In this document: positions 1 through 5,145 of the stretch, piece after piece
How positions within the stretch are numbered: position 1 is the stretch's first letter
Layout of the letters: each line of letters starts with the position of its first letter
From: a virus
Lineage: Duplodnaviria; Heunggongvirae; Uroviricota; Caudoviricetes
Strand: one strand, 5' to 3'
DNA: 5,145 nt
IMG/VR virus record: IMGVR_UViG_2778261065_000001
Coordinates: 1 to 5,145 of that record
Made by a program: the position numbers and the translations under genes
Notes under the pieces: model-generated
Seen by the model: only the letters and a program-made list of their open reading frames with translations
Database searches by the model: none
Told to the model about the DNA's origin: nothing

Positions 1-94
1 TTTCAGGGAAGTAATCCATTTCGACTATAACTGACAGGTCATCACGACGTATGACTGCGTATTTGCAACTAAATAGTTTCTTTATTTTTTCCAC
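1..94 (-). CDS. Hypothetical protein, 5' fragment only; gene continues beyond the left window edge
   Basis: Minus-strand frame open from a GTG at 94..92 to position 1 (VEKIKKLFSCKYAVIRRDDLSVIVEMDYFPE...), with GGAGG at 103..99 just upstream (spacer only 4 nt). In-frame stop at 151..149 limits any upstream extension. Too short in-window for the ORF track; no family recognised. Confidence 0.25.
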   Translation of the reverse strand, partial: MEKIKKLFSCKYAVIRRDDLSVIVEMDYFPE

Positions 95-177
95 GATGCC
101 TCCGAGTTTATAAGTACAAACGGTTATATCCACATAGAGACAAAAATATTAATCTGAAAAATATTTATTTCACGCCG

Positions 178-244
178 TATATTTGATTATTTAATGTGCA
201 GGTACAATGACTTTTATTTTTTGTTGTGTATATAATCAAATATA
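178..244. repeat. 13-bp perfect inverted repeat (TATATTTGATTAT / ATAATCAAATATA) with 41-bp spacer in AT-rich intergenic DNA
   Basis: Read directly: 178..190 tatatttgattat is the exact reverse complement of 232..244 ataatcaaatata. The right arm contains a consensus TATAAT (231..236, plus strand). Confidence 0.6.
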
Positions 245-279
245 TGGTTATTTTTCACCCTGCGCATTCAGCGCGCAAC

Positions 280-300
280 AAAAAACCCGCCGAAGCGGGT
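280..300 (-). terminator. Intrinsic terminator of the hok transcript
   Basis: On the minus strand: stem CCCGC / GCGGG (300..296 and 291..287) with a UUCG tetraloop, followed by a run of 7 U (286..280). Sits ~70 nt downstream of the hok stop. Confidence 0.8.
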
Positions 301-368
301 TTAGTGCGGGTGCGTTGAGGATGCCTGACACATGAGAGGTGGCGAGGGATTTCCCCCCGCCTGGTCTC

Positions 369-524
369 TTACTCCTCAGGTTCGTAAGCTGTGAAGACAG
401 CGACCTCCGTCTGGCCGGTTCGGATTCGTACCTCGCAGAGGTCTTTCCTCGTTACCAGTGCCGTCACTATGACGGTTAAACAGATGACGATCAGGGCGAT
501 TAACATCGCCTTTTGCTGCTTCAT
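369..524 (-). CDS. hok: Hok/Gef-family type I toxin (small membrane peptide), 51 aa
   Basis: ATG at 524..522, stop TAA 371..369. Product MKQQKAMLIALIVICLTVIVTALVTRKDLCEVRIRTGQTEVAVFTAYEPEE matches the Hok/Gef pattern (hydrophobic TM helix, conserved ...RKDLCEV.IR.G..EVAVF.AYE) and is near-identical to HokD/RelF as I recall it. AAGGAG lies 9 nt upstream. Confidence 0.9.
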   Translation of the reverse strand: MKQQKAMLIALIVICLTVIVTALVTRKDLCEVRIRTGQTEVAVFTAYEPEE

Positions 525-581
525 AGCCTGCTTCTCCTTGCCTTTCGGCACGTAAGAGGCTAACCTACATTTGTGAGACAT
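369..581 (-). CDS. mok: Mok-like in-frame leader ORF overlapping hok (modulator of killing), 70 aa
   Basis: Six-frame ORF 369..581; ATG at 581..579 preceded by GAGG at 593..590. The N-terminal extension MSHKCRLASYVPKGKEKQA resembles the MokC extension (MLNTCRVPLTDRKVKEKRA) as I remember it. Its start region is exactly where the predicted Sok RNA is antisense. Confidence 0.6.
   Translation of the reverse strand: MSHKCRLASYVPKGKEKQAMKQQKAMLIALIVICLTVIVTALVTRKDLCEVRIRTGQTEVAVFTAYEPEE
538..566 (+). promoter_or_regulatory. Putative sok promoter (-35 TTGCCT 538..543, 17-bp spacer, -10 TAACCT 561..566)
   Basis: Hexamers read on the plus strand, antisense to the hok start region. Same arrangement as the R1 sok promoter, which is embedded opposite the hok RBS. 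Predicted TSS about 573..575. Confidence 0.45.
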
Positions 582-645
582 AGATTGGGCCTCAGATTAA
601 TGTTAAGCGTCTTGCAGGACGCGTAATGTTAACTGGGGCTTTTCT
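573..645 (+). ncRNA. sok: Sok-like antisense RNA (type I antitoxin), about 70 nt
   Basis: Predicted from the promoter at 538..566. Single-stranded 5' tail about 573..588, then a long imperfect hairpin 589..639 (outer stem GCCUCAG/CUGGGGC with one G-U; inner stem closing on loop UUGCAG 612..617), then UUUUCU at 640..645. Antisense to the mok SD and start codon. Confidence 0.5.
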
Positions 646-692
646 CTGTCTGCCTTACAGTGGCATGCCCGAGGCAGACAGCCTCAAGCACC

Positions 693-712
693 CGCAGCAA
701 TCTTACCGATAC
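693..712 (-). promoter_or_regulatory. Putative hok/mok promoter: -10 TAAGAT (705..700), TSS near 693
   Basis: TAAGAT lies 6 nt upstream of GGGUGCUUGAGG (693..682), which resembles the 5' end of R1 hok mRNA and pairs with the 3' fbi element. No convincing -35 hexamer found. Confidence 0.35.
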
Positions 713-862
713 CGATAAGAAAACGCTATTTTTTATTGCCAGCACCTTCTATCCAGGCTAATTTATCTGCGTCAGAACGGCGCAATGCGCTCGCCTGAGA
801 TACGTTTACTTGCCATGGTAACAACAGATAACGGCAATTGTTGTTTCTGTTTTGTTTCCTTC

Positions 863-893
863 AAAAACCCCGGACCATCAATCCGGGGTTTTT
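863..893. terminator. Bidirectional intrinsic terminator between the phage operon and the hok cassette
   Basis: Stem CCCCGGA (868..874) / TCCGGGG (882..888), 7-nt loop, flanked by AAAAA (863..867) and TTTTTGTTTG (889..898). Gives a U-tract in either direction. About 85 nt downstream of the DUF551-like stop. Confidence 0.65.
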
Positions 894-978
894 GTTTGTT
901 ATCCCCAGCGGCAAATCGAATACACCATCAGCGCCACCGCCATTGCGATTCCTGCCGTTGTGAACGCTTCAGGCCAGG

Positions 979-1551
979 TCATTGATTCACCTCCTGCGGT
1001 GGTTCCGGTAGCGGCATCCAGTGAGTTGCCTGCTCAATACCATTACCCGGCTTAATCGTTGCTTCTCCTCGCCGGAATGTGCTTCCTGTATAGCGTGCGG
1101 AGCATATTAGCGGTTCAACCAGAGAGCTATCGAAATTCACCGAAATAAGCACGTTCTGGCCCTTTTCAGGCATTCGATCACTACAGCTTATCCAACTATC
1201 CGGAGTTCCCGGAGTTGGTCCATCGAATTCGGGCATGTCAGGACCTTTTCTGATAGCTTTAGCCAGCTCCAGCGGGTCATCGTAAAGCCAGTCGCCAGTT
1301 TGTGGGTGATTTGCTTCTGCAAGCTGCGCAGCCCATTCAAGACCATCTTTTTGACCTTGGAGATAATCAAGCGGCAACTCTTCATGATTACTTGCAGGTT
1401 CTGCACTATCAGCTTCGCGCCGCTTCTGTAGCTCTGCTGCCATCGCTCTCACGACTTCAACTGGTGCCCTTGCAGCAAACTCTATGTTGGTGATCAGCTC
1501 ATTAAGATATTGCTCGCTGGGATACTGTTTCTTATCGGTTATAGTGGTCAT
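979..1551 (-). CDS. DUF551-like phage protein, 190 aa
   Basis: ATG 1551..1549 with AAGGTG 8 nt upstream; stop TGA 981..979. C-terminal region DSWISCSDRMPE ... ATHWMPLPEPP matches the DUF551 signature as I recall it (WIS..DRLPE ... THWMPLPEPP). Confidence 0.75.
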   Translation of the reverse strand: MTTITDKKQYPSEQYLNELITNIEFAARAPVEVVRAMAAELQKRREADSAEPASNHEELPLDYLQGQKDGLEWAAQLAEANHPQTGDWLYDDPLELAKAIRKGPDMPEFDGPTPGTPDSWISCSDRMPEKGQNVLISVNFDSSLVEPLICSARYTGSTFRRGEATIKPGNGIEQATHWMPLPEPPQEVNQ

Positions 1552-1553
1552 AG

Positions 1554-1745
1554 CTATTTCACCTTAATCTCAACATTTCGCAGCTTTAGCTCTACTGGCA
1601 GGTCTGACTTTCCGGTTAATGCTAATGCGAGATTTTCTGGAGTAATGAGAGCCGTTATTGTTTTCCCCATCGACAGACGAATAATCATTCGTATCTCGCG
1701 ATCGTCACATGCTCCCGGTCGAACAATTGAGATTTGTCCGTTCAT
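1554..1745 (-). CDS. Hypothetical small phage protein, 63 aa
   Basis: ATG 1745..1743 with AAGGAG 6 nt upstream; 1 nt after the upstream gene's stop; stop TAG 1556..1554 lies 2 nt before the next ATG. No family recognised. Confidence 0.65.
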   Translation of the reverse strand: MNGQISIVRPGACDDREIRMIIRLSMGKTITALITPENLALALTGKSDLPVELKLRNVEIKVK

Positions 1746-1746
1746 C

Positions 1747-2151
1747 TCACTCTCCTTTGATGCGAATGCCAGCGACGCGTAGTGCGTGTTCTAAGTCAAT
1801 CAGGCAAAGCCAGCTGCCATTTTCTTTAGGTATCATGACATGTCGCTTATCAGCATTTATTGGGTGCCCATATCGAAGGTCGTAGCGAGTCGGTAATTGA
1901 ACTTCCCTCGCTTCCAGTTCTGTAATGCGTCTGTCTTTAGCTTCTATTTCATCCAGCAGTGCCAGCACGGTTTCTGGTCCGGCCAGAAATTTGAAGGCGT
2001 TGAGCGCATCAATATCCACACCGTAATCTTTAAGTTCCTGTTCACTTATCAGATCATCATCAACTGGCAACATTAACAGGCGTTCCATTGCCGGAATTGC
2101 ACGTTCTGCCGCCTCACGCAGCGCCAGTGTGTCGATGTCGATTTTGCTCAT
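1747..2151 (-). CDS. Ead/Ea22-like phage protein, 134 aa
   Basis: Preferred start ATG 2151..2149 (GGAGG, 4-nt spacer), overlapping the upstream stop as ATGA. The ORF-track start at 2175 would overlap the upstream gene by 28 nt. N-terminus MSKIDIDTLALREAAERA and motif VLALLDEIEAKDRRITELEA resemble Ead/Ea22-like prophage proteins. Confidence 0.7.
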   Translation of the reverse strand: MSKIDIDTLALREAAERAIPAMERLLMLPVDDDLISEQELKDYGVDIDALNAFKFLAGPETVLALLDEIEAKDRRITELEAREVQLPTRYDLRYGHPINADKRHVMIPKENGSWLCLIDLEHALRVAGIRIKGE

Positions 2152-2381
2152 TGTGCCTCCTCGATTTCGTCCCATTCCACCCAGGCATTCTCTCCATCAG
2201 CATCGATTTCACCTTTGTGACCGCATTTGGAACAAACGGCCTCATCACCCGCCCACAAAGAATCTTTGGTTACCGACCATCCTGTTACCTTGGCTTTGCC
2301 GTGCTGGCACTTAGGGCAATCATCAAGCCATTCGACTTCGACCGTTGAAGGACCAAATCCATGTTCAGTTCGGATGCTCAT
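2148..2381 (-). CDS. Small zinc-ribbon protein (CxxC...CxxC), 77 aa
   Basis: Preferred start ATG 2381..2379 with AAGGAG 7 nt upstream, overlapping the upstream stop as ATGA. The track's 118-aa ORF starts at a TTG (2504) with no SD and overlaps the upstream gene. Product MSIRTEHGFGPSTVEVEWLDDCPKCQHGKAKVTGWSVTKDSLWAGDEAVCSKCGHKGE... has two CxxC pairs 23 residues apart. Confidence 0.7.
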   Translation of the reverse strand: MSIRTEHGFGPSTVEVEWLDDCPKCQHGKAKVTGWSVTKDSLWAGDEAVCSKCGHKGEIDADGENAWVEWDEIEEAQ

Positions 2382-2584
2382 GACTGAACTCCTTTGCGAA
2401 TCTGTTCCGCACAATGCAGCAGGGCGTCCGTCGCTTCTTTCACCGTAACGATGTCGCCATCGTCCAGTCCTGCAATTTTTGCGTGCCTGACAAACGCCGC
2501 GCAAAGGTCGTTAAACGCCCCTGCCCGCACATCCGCCAGGAAAGCGTTGGCAGCAGCCAATTCTTGGTAGTCAATCCCGCTCAC
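2378..2584 (-). CDS. Hypothetical small phage protein, 68 aa (GTG start)
   Basis: Preferred start GTG 2584..2582 with GGAGG 7 nt upstream, overlapping the upstream stop TGA (2583..2581) as GTGA. The track's 91-aa ORF begins at an upstream GTG (2653) that would overlap the preceding gene by 73 nt. No family recognised. Confidence 0.55.
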   Translation of the reverse strand: MSGIDYQELAAANAFLADVRAGAFNDLCAAFVRHAKIAGLDDGDIVTVKEATDALLHCAEQIRKGVQS

Positions 2585-3003
2585 TGTGCCACCTCCTGAA
2601 AATTCCCCTGATAAAACGCCAGCACGCGCTGCATAACTTCGCTCTTCCTGCACTCGCGACAGATTATGTTCAGACGCCTGTCGTAGCGGCGTATTTCTCC
2701 GTCTGGTAATGACCAGATAAGGTCCGGATCAACCACAACCGTTTTTTTCACCTTTGCCCTGGATAGTTTTTTGCGGGCGTTTTGCCAGTCCTTACGCGCC
2801 TGCTCAGACGGGAATAATCCGTAGCCTGAATTGTAAACATCACCACTGGCGACCAGTTCTCTGGCGAGAGTGCTTATGTAATACCTTGATGCACCGGTTT
2901 TAACCTCCAGAGCCCGTAACGTCTCGCGACCGCTCAGACGTACAAGTTCAACAACCTGCCCTTTAATTTTTTCTCGCTCTTCTGGTGTAAATACTTTTGC
3001 CAT
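2581..3003 (-). CDS. Hypothetical phage protein, 140 aa
   Basis: Preferred start ATG 3003..3001 with GGAGG 5 nt upstream; the track ORF start at 3018 is a TTG. Stop TGA 2583..2581. N-terminal region VELVRLSGRETLRALEVKTGASRYYISTLAREL looks HTH-like (inference); C-terminus has one CxxC. No family assigned. Confidence 0.7.
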   Translation of the reverse strand: MAKVFTPEEREKIKGQVVELVRLSGRETLRALEVKTGASRYYISTLARELVASGDVYNSGYGLFPSEQARKDWQNARKKLSRAKVKKTVVVDPDLIWSLPDGEIRRYDRRLNIICRECRKSEVMQRVLAFYQGNFQEVAQ

Positions 3004-3018
3004 AGGTGCCTCCGGCAA

Positions 3019-3780
3019 TCACTTTTCCGACACAATACGACTGGAGGAATCGAAAATATGTCGAACAATATCCCGGTGCTTGTTCAGCTCCCGCAGCGCG
3101 GCGCAGATTCGCTCCCACTTCTGGACATGATTTTTCGCCCGACGCAGTTCGCGGTTTGCCATATGCAGCGATGGTAAAACCAGGTCATCCGCTCGCGTTT
3201 CAGTAAACGATGGCAGCGACTGCACAATGTCCGCCACCGTTTCTGTTTTAATATCTTCCTGTGTTGCAGCCTCCTGTACTGGTAACGCAACACCTGTGGG
3301 CTGAGGAAAGGCCTTACCATCAGTTTCCGCTACCGATGCTGCTTTCGGCTCTGCTGGTAAATTATCGCCCGGTATGCAGTAACGAAATTTACCGTTCTGG
3401 TTTACGCGAATCAGGCGTCCTTTGCTGATAGCCATTGCCAGCGTTGAAGCTACTTTGCGTGATGTGGTACCGAACAATGTAGCCAACTCATCCGCCGTTT
3501 GTGGCCCACGTTGTTCAATCGCCGCAGTTAAATCGCACTCCGAAATTTTCGCGACTGTTGCCGTGGTGGTTTCTTCCGGCAGTTCTGCCTGCTCTGGCTG
3601 TTCCTGCTGAACGTTGTTATCAGCCACACGCCAGGTGTACGCGCTTTTATCAACAAAACCAGCCTTTTTCAGTTCCCACAGCTCGTTCAGTACCTCTTCA
3701 CGACTGATATCAAGTCGCGCAGCCAGTTCTACCGACGTGGCTTTTCCCATTGCTTTCAGTGCGTCAAAAACAGTCTCCAT
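3019..3780 (-). CDS. Phage protein with two predicted winged-helix-like segments, 253 aa
   Basis: Preferred start ATG 3780..3778 with GGGAGG 8 nt upstream, 22 nt after the DnaC-like stop. The track start at 3831 would overlap the DnaC-like gene by 29 nt. Segments [28 protein letters not shown] and [31 protein letters not shown] look like winged-helix motifs, separated by a Q/E/P/T-rich linker. Fold assignment is inference. Confidence 0.7.
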
Positions 3781-3802
3781 TAAAATTTCCTCCCGGTAAA
3801 AA

Positions 3803-4549
3803 TCACTTCGCAATTCCTGGCTGGACGACATTCGGACGCCAGCTCTCCCAGTTAAAATTCACCCATCGCCCGCCGTTCATGGTCATGCGATCCATAATCC
3901 TCTCGCCGAGCAATGTTTTCATGGCCTCATAGTTCAGGTTTGTCAGCATCCCCACGCTGCGCATCGACGCTGTCCGGCGATCAACAATCTGGTGCAGCAC
4001 CACCTGCTCGTTTTTTGTCTCGCGCTGAATGCCAATTTCATCAAGAACCAGCAGATCCACTTCGCACAGCTCCCGCAAAAATTTTTCGCCTGACTGCCCG
4101 TCGTCATAGCTGGCGTGCAGGGCGCTCATAACATCAGCCACGGTAACCACAATCACTGTCTGACCGTCTTTCAGCAGGCGATTCCCGATAGCTGCCGCTA
4201 AGTGATTCTTCCCGGTACCAGGTTTTCCGCTGAACGCAAAATTTGTACACCCGGTCATCAGTTCATCGGTGATGGATTTCGCCTGGCTTAACGCGTATCG
4301 CTGGCCGTCGTTCTGCACCTGGTAATTCGCAAACGAGCATTTACGGTGCAACGGCTGGATGCCAGAGCGATTCAGAATTTTTTCCACCCGCAACTGATGA
4401 TTCAGGCGGTTGATCTCCTCGCAACGTTTCTGGCCTTCAGCAAGTTGCCACTCACGCCACTCCGCAACCGTTCTGAATGGGGCGGTTACATGTGGTGGGG
4501 TCAGTCTGCGGATACGCTCCAGAACGCCGCCTGTCGCAATATTTTTCAT
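3803..4549 (-). CDS. DnaC-like replicative helicase loader (phage P-like AAA+ ATPase), 248 aa
   Basis: ATG 4549..4547, stop TGA 3805..3803. Walker [18 protein letters not shown] and Walker [10 protein letters not shown]. End-to-end resemblance to E. coli DnaC (245 aa; e.g. CSFENY / [16 protein letters not shown] / MLTNSN..LLGERVMDRM), recalled from memory. Confidence 0.9.
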
Positions 4550-4555
4550 GGTCTG

Positions 4556-5145
4556 TTACCCCCTGAAGCCTGGCGGGATCGCACTGTCCGGCAACGAGAC
4601 GGTGTTAACCTGTCGGAGCAACGTCTCAGGCCGAACACCTTTCGGTGCGAACAAGCCCTGGTATTCATTGGCGATGCTGTGTCGAATCACCTGCTCAGGT
4701 GTAAAACCCTGCTGACGGAATTTTTCCAGTTCCCGTATCGCCCCGTTAGCGCCCTGCTCCGTTCGAATCGGTTTTCGCAATGCCTGTCTGAACCGGACCC
4801 ACTCATGCCAGAGTGTTTCCGGCAACCAATCAGGCAGCTCAATAGCCTCCGGCTCGAATTTTTTAGACGCTCGTTTTTGGCGAGGGGGATTTAGGGGGAG
4901 ATCAGTATTTAGATCTTCCTCTTCCTCTTCCTCTGGTAACGCTTTTTGATCCGTTTGTGTAACGCTGGCAGCGTTACCTTTTCGTTTCAGTTCGCGTATT
5001 TTTGTAACTCGCTCGTTTGTAACCGCCCGTTTTTTAGAGCTTTTTCCGTTATGACGTTCAAAGTTAGGTAGAGAAAGCCCAACGTCATTTTCGACCAGCC
5101 ATCCAACCTGAATTAACGCATCAGCAAAACCAGCCATAAAAGTGA
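4556..5145 (-). CDS. Replication initiator / replisome-organizer-like protein with C-terminal DnaT-like domain; probably 5'-truncated by the window edge
   Basis: ORF 4556..5137 (193 aa in window), stop TAA 4558..4556, 6 nt before the DnaC-like start. C-terminus RQVNTVSLPDSAIPPGFRG closely matches the C-terminus of E. coli DnaT (..RDVNTVSEPDSQIPPGFRG). No in-frame stop or SD in the 8 nt upstream of the first ATG (5137), and the gene holds iteron-like repeats, so the true start is probably outside the window. Confidence 0.8.
   Translation of the reverse strand, partial: TFMAGFADALIQVGWLVENDVGLSLPNFERHNGKSSKKRAVTNERVTKIRELKRKGNAASVTQTDQKALPEEEEEEDLNTDLPLNPPRQKRASKKFEPEAIELPDWLPETLWHEWVRFRQALRKPIRTEQGANGAIRELEKFRQQGFTPEQVIRHSIANEYQGLFAPKGVRPETLLRQVNTVSLPDSAIPPGFRG
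4936..5023. repeat. Iteron-like cluster: five GTAAC/GTTAC motifs in 88 bp, including a 19-bp perfect palindrome
   Basis: Plus-strand GTAAC at 4936, 4959, 5004, 5019 and GTTAC at 4973. 4959..4977 = GTAACGCTG-G-CAGCGTTAC (9-bp arms, 1-bp spacer). Several copies are preceded by CGTTTG on the plus strand. Lies inside the initiator-like gene. Confidence 0.45.

Follow-up and report, generated by a model that had tools for sequence, protein, structure and literature searches.

Does the cluster of GTAAC repeats inside a prophage replication initiator gene mark the origin at which that initiator acts? The question is raised by the right end of a stretch of 5,145 nucleotides (nt) from a Caudoviricetes virus (positions 1 to 5,145 of IMG/VR record IMGVR_UViG_2778261065_000001; here called the window), for which a first-pass annotation had proposed a lambda-like origin within the gene. 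Window positions 4914-5023 are probably the downstream iteron cluster and the polypurine element of a candidate lambda-type intragenic origin, carried by a Rac-like lambdoid prophage of Escherichia coli. This reading, which is based on computation only, is favored because initiator and loader genes are present, the synonymous sites that hold the repeats are preserved, the arms of the dyads are invariant or nearly so and their centers variable, the half-sites track the lineage of the initiator, and the order of the elements is like that in lambda. The earlier proposal of a lambda-like origin is therefore supported by layout, by selection at the DNA level and by covariation of the half-sites with the N-terminal domain of the initiator.

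Repeats, dyads and purine tract

The window ends within the initiator gene. Extension to the right, into a locus of 13.3 kb (L001; the window position is the L001 position minus 2201), recovered the full open reading frame (ORF) of 262 codons, of which only the first 67 are outside the window. The ORF tool reported an ATG at 5137, which is the internal Met70 of the initiator and not the gene start. The motifs had been placed inside the gene directly upstream of a DnaC-like loader gene; they indeed lie in this minus-strand gene, in a stretch encoding KKRAVTNERVTKIRELKRKGNAASVTQTDQKALPEEEEEED, and ydaV, the loader gene, starts 7 nt past the initiator stop codon. The features of the locus are as follows.

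4556 to 5145, minus strand: initiator gene, codons 68-262 and stop codon (complete gene of 262 codons at L001 6757-7545)
3803 to 4549, minus strand: ydaV (RefSeq name), gene for a DnaC/IstB-like AAA+ helicase loader (Pfam IstB_IS21, E 2.5e-19; Bac_DnaA, E 5e-8)
4884 to 4915: segment downstream of the tract, possibly part of the origin, with GATC (Dam) sites at 4900-4903 and 4912-4915, 12 bp apart, and C5-TAAAT-C5 on the coding strand
4914 to 4934, minus (coding) strand: polypurine tract AGAGGAAGAGGAAGAGGAAGA, 21 nt, including (GAGGAA)x3, encoding PEEEEEED
4936 to 4942, minus strand: half-site GCGTTAC, abutting the purine tract (gene nt 405; Ala-Leu-Pro)
4959 to 4977: dyad GTAACGC-TGGCA-GCGTTAC, encoding Gly-Asn-Ala-Ala-Ser-Val-Thr
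5002 to 5008, minus strand: half-site GTTACAA (gene nt 337; Val-Thr-Lys)
5017 to 5023, minus strand: half-site GTTACAA (gene nt 322; Val-Thr-Asn)
5166 to 5184 (window-equivalent; L001 7367-7385): dyad in the N-terminal coding region, gene nt 161-179, beyond the window
5358 to 5376 (window-equivalent; L001 7559-7577): upstream dyad, 12-33 nt upstream of the start codon, just before the ribosome-binding sequence AGGTGA

The core GTAAC is found at 4936-4940, 4959-4963, 5004-5008 and 5019-5023, and GTTAC at 4973-4977. Five such cores within 88 bp had been considered far above chance, and none of 2000 dinucleotide-preserving shuffles reached this number (the maximum was 4, once). Counted on both strands, the whole window contains 16 cores, compared with 6.4 ± 2.4 in shuffles. 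The perfect 9-1-9 palindrome noticed in the first pass is present at 4959-4977 (GTAACGCTG-G-CAGCGTTAC). Taken by itself it is not significant, since about 10% of shuffled windows contain a perfect palindrome with 9-nt arms. It is better read, however, as GTAACGC-N5-GCGTTAC, a dyad that occurs three times in the 13.3-kb locus with 0 copies expected. The arms of the three dyads are identical and the centers are TGGCA, CGCGA and TCGCA. The dyad in the window is flanked by three half-sites, GTTACAA twice and GCGTTACC once. The repeats seen initially thus stand, and the element is larger than had been noted, with two more dyads outside the window. Relative to the gene, cluster I is located at about nt 150-200, beyond the window, and cluster II at about nt 320-410; the latter comprises the repeats of the window, which occupy codons 108-137 of 262. 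No DnaA boxes were found near the repeat element.

On the plus strand, (CTTCCT)x3 is present at 4915-4932 as described, within a pyrimidine run of 21 nt at 4914-4934, and it encodes the acidic run. Its description as acidic low-complexity coding sequence is correct for the encoded PEEEEEED, but the tract is not merely that, as the DNA feature itself is conserved. A purine run of at least 12 nt occupies this position in 69 of 91 homologous loci (median 21 nt; 0.03 per 180 nt expected elsewhere), and its onset lies 1-2 nt past the last half-site (GTTAC) in 50 of 79 loci. Throughout the family the junction 'GCGTTACC(T)AGAG...' is kept. With respect to tract type, a 5-nt (AGAGA)n repeat was identified in 42 of 84 loci and the hexamer form, an enterobacterial variant, in five of 84; most relatives carry (AGAGA)4-6, and the lineage of the window carries (GAGGAA)3. 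Since the period is 5 nt, (AGAGA)n does not result from codon repetition. Arginine codons inside the tracts are AGA in 120 of 120 cases and never AGG, although elsewhere in these genes AGG is used more often than AGA; counting arginine codons in a purine-only run is partly circular, and the contrast of AGA with AGG alone is informative. The tract is proposed, on the basis of sequence, to be an unwinding or strand-asymmetric origin element.

The segment at 4884-4915 is nearly identical in ydaU of the K-12 Rac prophage and marks a recombination joint between the variable and the shared halves of the gene. From AAGATCTAAA on, the gene of the window and K-12 ydaU align almost without differences, and upstream of AAGATCTAAA no similarity is found. 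The whole element might be a junction for recombination or module exchange, or some other cis site such as a packaging signal or an antisense terminator, but this explanation is considered very improbable. The exchange of N- and C-terminal modules exactly at the purine tract, where the K-12 homology begins, the variation of the C-terminal domains between relatives and a 114-amino-acid insertion behind the tract in many E. coli copies are all in line with a junction. A junction would account for one boundary, however, and not for two lineage-specific clusters of symmetric half-sites 200 bp apart, and lambda-type origins are known to give rise to module joints at the origin, as in the O genes of lambdoid phages. 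As for a terminator, a consensus scan flagged the palindrome together with CTTTTCGTTT (window 4959-4987, plus strand, antisense to the initiator gene) as terminator-like. This flag was judged to be a by-product of the dyad, because the centers vary and half-sites also stand alone. A terminator or structured RNA was rejected: the center of the palindrome varies, lone half-sites are conserved, and the flag is a single consensus match. An Rfam search gave only sok at 519-693 and no RNA family at the repeat element.

C-rich elements resembling C5-TAAAT-C5 also follow the tract in other phages (L011, L177, L179). The insertion behind the acidic tract (about 114 amino acids after residue 149, in P0013 and relatives of 376-380 amino acids) contains the motifs RIDIVVTD...IELD...K, which resemble a PD-(D/E)xK nuclease fold; judging from these motifs, a nuclease-like domain seems to have landed beside the putative origin.

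Conservation of the repeats in homologues

Homologues of the N-terminal domain were taken from phage records and from one genome per bacterial species. The species-level set comprises 80 loci, the subset with GTAACG-class half-sites, from Enterobacterales, Pseudomonas, Xanthomonas and other Xanthomonadales, Burkholderiales, Planctomycetota, Verrucomicrobiota and others. On average, a locus has 2.1 copies of GTAACG or CGTTAC at gene nt 100-200 and about three at nt 300-450. Elsewhere the frequency is 0.00-0.07 per 50 bp, with a small rise to 0.13 just upstream of the start codon. Half-sites reach a density of 15.3 per kb within the clusters, compared with 1.0 per kb outside them, and their logo is (G)GTAACGC(T).

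Three different codon contexts contain the core (GGT-AAC, GTT-ACx and xxG-TTA-CCx), which is also found once in non-coding DNA. Comparison of synonymous sites across homologues (84 genes), which had been named as a check on the repeats, revealed codons fixed in a way that preserves the motif. Gly50 is encoded by GGT in 82 of 84 genes, a codon used for other conserved glycines in only 5/84, 4/84, 34/76 and 26/71 cases. Val59 is GTT in 79 of 83 genes, compared with 24/70 and 18/79 at control valines, and the alanine of the motif is GCT in 68 of 84, compared with about 35% at controls. Leu63 is TTA in 51 of 69 genes and Val70 is GTT in 67 of 70. This bias persists in loci with a G+C content of up to 68%.

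A polymorphism profile of close relatives was prepared from the near-identical E. coli copies in viral records (54 unique sequences). The arms of the two dyads outside the window are invariant in all of them and the centers vary; in the window dyad the center is variable and the arms show only scattered variants of low frequency. Dyads of equal spacing are present at the same gene position in phages whose N-terminal domains are 43-72% identical. In TL-2011b, BUCT554 and HEMP4 (65% identity over the N-terminal 144 amino acids) four codons are deleted, and the first dyad is kept by a shift of 12 nt.

As an alternative, the first-pass annotation had suggested that the repeats are a by-product of repetitive, VT..K-rich coding sequence. 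In this explanation the low-complexity linker (VT..K/GN-rich) and the acidic tract would generate the motifs, and the DNA would have no function of its own. Three of the five cores in the window do encode Val-Thr in one frame, the tract translates into a simple run of acidic residues, and cluster I encodes conserved residues. The suggestion was nevertheless rejected because of the three codon contexts, the fixed synonymous sites, the invariant arms and the dyad that survives a deletion. The non-coding copy, the synonymous fixation in loci of high G+C content, the 5-nt period of the purine repeat in most relatives with arginine as AGA only, the joint change of half-site copies in sub-lineages (along with residue 51 from Asn to His, see below) and the five cores that exceed all 2000 shuffles are equally difficult to derive from coding sequence, so that a by-product is extremely improbable. 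From the sequences compared, the repeats are real and are maintained by selection on the DNA itself.

The sites might also be operators only, with which the initiator or another phage DNA-binding protein controls the initiator-ydaV operon while the origin is located elsewhere. One dyad does cover the ribosome-binding region, 12-33 nt before the start codon; the arms of this dyad are invariant in the 54 close relatives, and relatives in Yersinia and Pantoea have it as well. Inverted repeats are used for autorepression of the initiator in iteron plasmids. The upstream dyad is confined to an enterobacterial subgroup, however; most members of the family have the two intragenic clusters only. Operators would hardly explain five to eight sites deep in the ORF that always abut a conserved purine repeat at a domain boundary. 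The layout resembles the lambda origin, and autoregulation and origin function are mutually compatible. Operators as the sole function are thus unlikely, and the intragenic origin is the preferred reading.

The initiator protein and the half-site classes

The N-terminal domain of the initiator is conserved and is joined by a disordered linker to a C-terminal domain that can be exchanged; the gene for the DnaC-like loader comes next. Along its entire length (residues 1-262, aligned to profile positions 1-277) the protein matches the profile phrog_2509, 'replication initiation protein', with an E value of 3.9e-89. The N-terminal 130 residues alone match phrog_9474, and matches to phrog_678, 'O-like', and phrog_6451, 'primosomal protein', are confined to the C-terminal part. 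A copy with 99% identity is listed in RefSeq as 'phage replication initiator YdaU family protein'. Searches of Pfam and NCBIfam gave no significant family for the initiator, and no Pfam match at E≤1; there was no match to the Pfam family Phage_rep_O, and the best BLASTP hit to lambda O had an E value of 1.3. A likeness to DnaT is restricted to the last ~20 residues (NCBIfam E 0.006, far below cutoff; PDB 2ru8 E 0.38). YdaU of K-12 shares the C-terminal 124 amino acids with 81% identity, the homology beginning at residue 139. The N-terminal 138 residues cannot be aligned with K-12 YdaU, and its DUF1376 domain is absent here (no Pfam match). The C-terminal domains of other relatives differ as well.

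An AlphaFold2 model calculated from 24 homologues is of mediocre quality overall (mean predicted local distance difference test 66). It contains helices at residues 16-25, 29-48, 61-68 and 73-80 and a beta hairpin at 84-91. The confident parts are an N-terminal bundle (helices 61-68 and 73-80, hairpin 84-91) and a C-terminal three-helix domain; confidence is low for the loop 51-58, which encodes dyad I, and for the linker 121-160, which encodes the purine tract, the last half-site and the dyad in the window. Farther upstream, the two half-sites at codons 108-114 map to the helix 104-121 and not to the linker. Taken as a model, this fits DNA signals overprinted on tolerant protein regions, and the loop and linker of the initiator would look low in complexity because the DNA signal dictates them. 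The DNA-binding N-terminal domain had been expected to be encoded beyond the window. This holds for the first 67 codons, but the window does encode residues 73-91, the predicted recognition helix and wing.

Several classes of half-sites exist besides GTAACG. The class GTCCGC(A) accompanies N-terminal domains of the epsilon15 type, in epsilon15 (Salmonella), Klebsiella phage BUCT711, Pseudomonas phage phiPSA1, Ralstonia phage RPZH6 and Cobetia phage Carin1. The class GTAGAC is represented by TGTAGACG in Ralstonia phage Raharianne, and the class GTCAC by GTCAC-N9-GTGAC in one Vibrio phage and three metagenome-assembled genomes (MAGs). All three share the layout of two clusters followed by a purine tract, which is mostly (AGAGA)n, with a related variant in the Vibrio phage, in Cobetia phage Carin1 and in two MAGs. 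In the GTCAC class residue 51 is changed from Asn (AAC) to His (CAC) and every copy of the motif is altered together, including those in other frames. Because copies in other frames change with residue 51, it is the DNA motif that dictates this residue. The most regular array seen is that of a Rhodanobacteraceae MAG (L164, 803+327..803+390). It consists of six GTCACG half-sites, four in one direction and two inverted, with four steps of 11 bp and one of 13 bp, is directly followed by (AGAGA)5 and offers a clean model of cluster II of the family.

The class of half-site follows the lineage of the N-terminal domain, and neither the host nor the neighboring genes. Ralstonia alone has the classes GTAACG, GTCCGC and GTAGAC, and a single class can span several host orders. 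The upstream neighbors of the homologues vary (methyltransferase, phosphoesterase, repressor or ydaT), as do the downstream partners (DnaC-like, DnaB or none), so that the N-terminal domain is the sole constant companion of the motif. Because the classes cross hosts and the neighbors differ while the N-terminal domain is constant, the covariation in these sequences points to this domain as the cognate binder of the half-sites. YdaT, the cI-like repressor and the cro-like protein were considered as binders and rejected, as the site of YdaT differs, the operator region has no GTAAC, and these genes are missing from many relatives that bear the motif. In the cI/cro intergenic region no GTAAC was found. 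The site given for YdaT in PMC9986795 is TTGATT-N6-AATCAA.

The following sequence of events is proposed. Dimers of the predicted winged-helix N-terminal domain would bind the GTAACGC-N5-GCGTTAC dyads, and further subunits of the initiator would occupy the flanking half-sites and form an O-some-like complex. This complex would then distort or melt the purine-rich DNA next to it (about 40-50% G+C), and the C-terminal domain, with its weakly DnaT-like tail, would recruit the complex of YdaV (DnaC-like) and DnaB. Binding to the dyad over the ribosome-binding region would probably lead to autorepression of the initiator, as with the inverted repeats of iteron plasmids.

Several observations weigh against an origin at this position. 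The purine repeat is a hexamer here and the usual unit of the family is a pentamer. The local G+C content of 40-50% is not strongly AT-rich, unlike the stretch of roughly 80% A+T in lambda. The spacing of the half-sites in the window (15, 31, 14 and 23 bp) is less regular than the 11-12 bp of most relatives. Cluster I encodes conserved residues (G-N-A..V-T), so that its conservation is partly at the protein level, and the sites within and upstream of the gene could serve autoregulation alone.

Comparison with known origins and prophage context

The origin of phage lambda (RefSeq NC_001416) has four iterons at nt 349-433 of gene O, followed about 20 bp downstream by AAAAGAAAAAAGAAAAGA on the sense strand. 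The candidate origin resembles it in being located in the initiator ORF at the boundary between the N-terminal DNA-binding and the C-terminal loader-recruiting parts, in having repeats with dyad character followed by a purine run on the sense strand, and in the helicase-loader gene that comes next. The order of iterons, purine tract and C-terminal domain is the same, and in both cases each type of N-terminal domain has its own repeat sequence. Unlike in lambda, the initiator has no sequence similarity to O and the loader is DnaC/IstB-like and not lambda P. The half-sites are of 7-8 bp in two clusters ~200 bp apart, where lambda has four adjacent iterons of 18-19 bp, and one of the clusters lies inside the coding region of the DNA-binding domain. 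Here the purine element consists of short tandem units, lies directly against the last site and is not strongly AT-rich.

For the Rac prophage of K-12 an active origin, oriJ, has been reported and is known from genetics (PMC3945230; Potrykus et al. 2000, cited in PMC11014345). The prophage type and the gene order (cI-like, cro-like, ydaT, initiator, ydaV) are the same as here, the C-terminal domain is 81% identical, ydaV is near-identical, and repeats are present in the DNA coding for the linker. The N-terminal domain of YdaU, in contrast, is the unrelated DUF1376, and the repeats are TGTTCAAACA and not GTAACGC. In K-12 ydaU (L003 4509-4578), (A/G)TGTTCAAACA occurs twice in direct and once in inverted orientation, with weaker copies upstream and an A-rich stretch after it. 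No sequence-level map of oriJ was found in the literature searched, and RefSeq annotates no origin at K-12 ydaU; from its sequence, L003 4509-4578 is a candidate for the position of oriJ.

With the origins of iteron plasmids (RepE, RepA of pPS10, pi of R6K) the locus shares a winged-helix initiator (predicted here), an origin that contains direct half-sites or iterons, and an inverted repeat that covers the expression signals of the initiator itself. By analogy, the arrangement of half-sites and inverted repeat suggests that dimers repress and that origin-bound forms initiate. It differs in the location of the origin within the gene, in the single winged-helix domain seen instead of a WH1-WH2 pair, and in the lack of DnaA boxes nearby. 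No homology to iteron plasmid initiators was detected in profile and structure-database searches of the initiator.

DnaA-trios are 3-nt repeats beside a DnaA box and form the basal unwinding system of bacterial chromosomal origins. Here, too, a short tandem repeat, mostly (AGAGA)n, starts 1-2 nt after the last initiator site; the unit has 5 nt (6 nt in the window) instead of three, and the initiator is unrelated. It is conceivable on this analogy, although rather doubtful, that the purine repeat is a specific element for single-strand recognition or unwinding by this family of initiators, DnaA-trio-like, and that together with the two iteron clusters it defines a distinct class of phage origins. 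Such a class may span Enterobacterales to Planctomycetota, with the specificity of the iterons re-set several times and the repeat held constant.

The lambda-type design is already known, and the putative origin family, as judged from its homologues, is conserved across many bacterial phyla. In the literature searched (iterons with epsilon15, DnaC-like prophage initiators) no description of a GTAACGC-type origin was found; an earlier description is possible. If the origin reading is correct, it would provide a sequence-level origin for a very common class of prophages in E. coli and Shigella and, by extension, for phages of Pseudomonas, Xanthomonas, Ralstonia, Salmonella (epsilon15 group) and Planctomycetota, in which origins are currently unannotated. 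The natural swaps of specificity among GTAACG, GTCCGC, GTAGAC and GTCAC on a constant scaffold would offer a system for the evolution of initiator-origin recognition and for the study of DNA signals overprinted on coding sequence. The rule 'two half-site clusters plus purine repeat' could be used to predict origins in metagenomic phages.

Window positions 3800-5145 are 99.9% identical to a prophage of E. coli strain 300709. The same right end of the window, which spans the 3' part of the initiator gene and ydaV, served as a 1.35-kb query and was matched in 1821 of 5426 complete E. coli genomes, a count that includes K-12-type modules, because the query covers ydaV and 309 records are only 60-80% identical. 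Phage vB_EcoS-673R7 carries a module with 95% identity.

The extended locus has the organization of a Rac-like lambdoid early region, with recE/recT and kilR at one side, followed by a cI/DicA-like repressor gene that is divergent from a cro-like helix-turn-helix gene, and then ydaT, the 262-codon gene, ydaV, DUF1627, DUF977 and hokD. A promoter scan gave no sigma-70-like promoter upstream of the initiator gene. Between the divergent repressor genes (L001 8300-8380, outside the window) there are two differing palindromes, ATCACGAATCGTGAT and AACACAAGATGTGTT, which are presumably immunity operators and unrelated to the GTAAC motif.

Homologous initiator modules are also carried by two circular records labeled as plasmids, one of 52 kb from E. 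coli with no replicon type assigned (L180, CP088505.1) and one of 41 kb from Pusillimonas (L181, NC_015459.1). Both could represent phage genomes, or phage-plasmids whose replication starts at an origin of this type. As proof that the module is a sufficient replicon they were rejected, since both records look like phage genomes.

At the other end of the window, positions 369-693 of the minus strand contain a hok/sok type I toxin-antitoxin locus. It consists of a hok ORF at 369-581 (Hok/Gef domain, Pfam E 3e-23; hokD in relatives) and the sok antisense RNA at 519-693 (Rfam RF01794, 118 bits).

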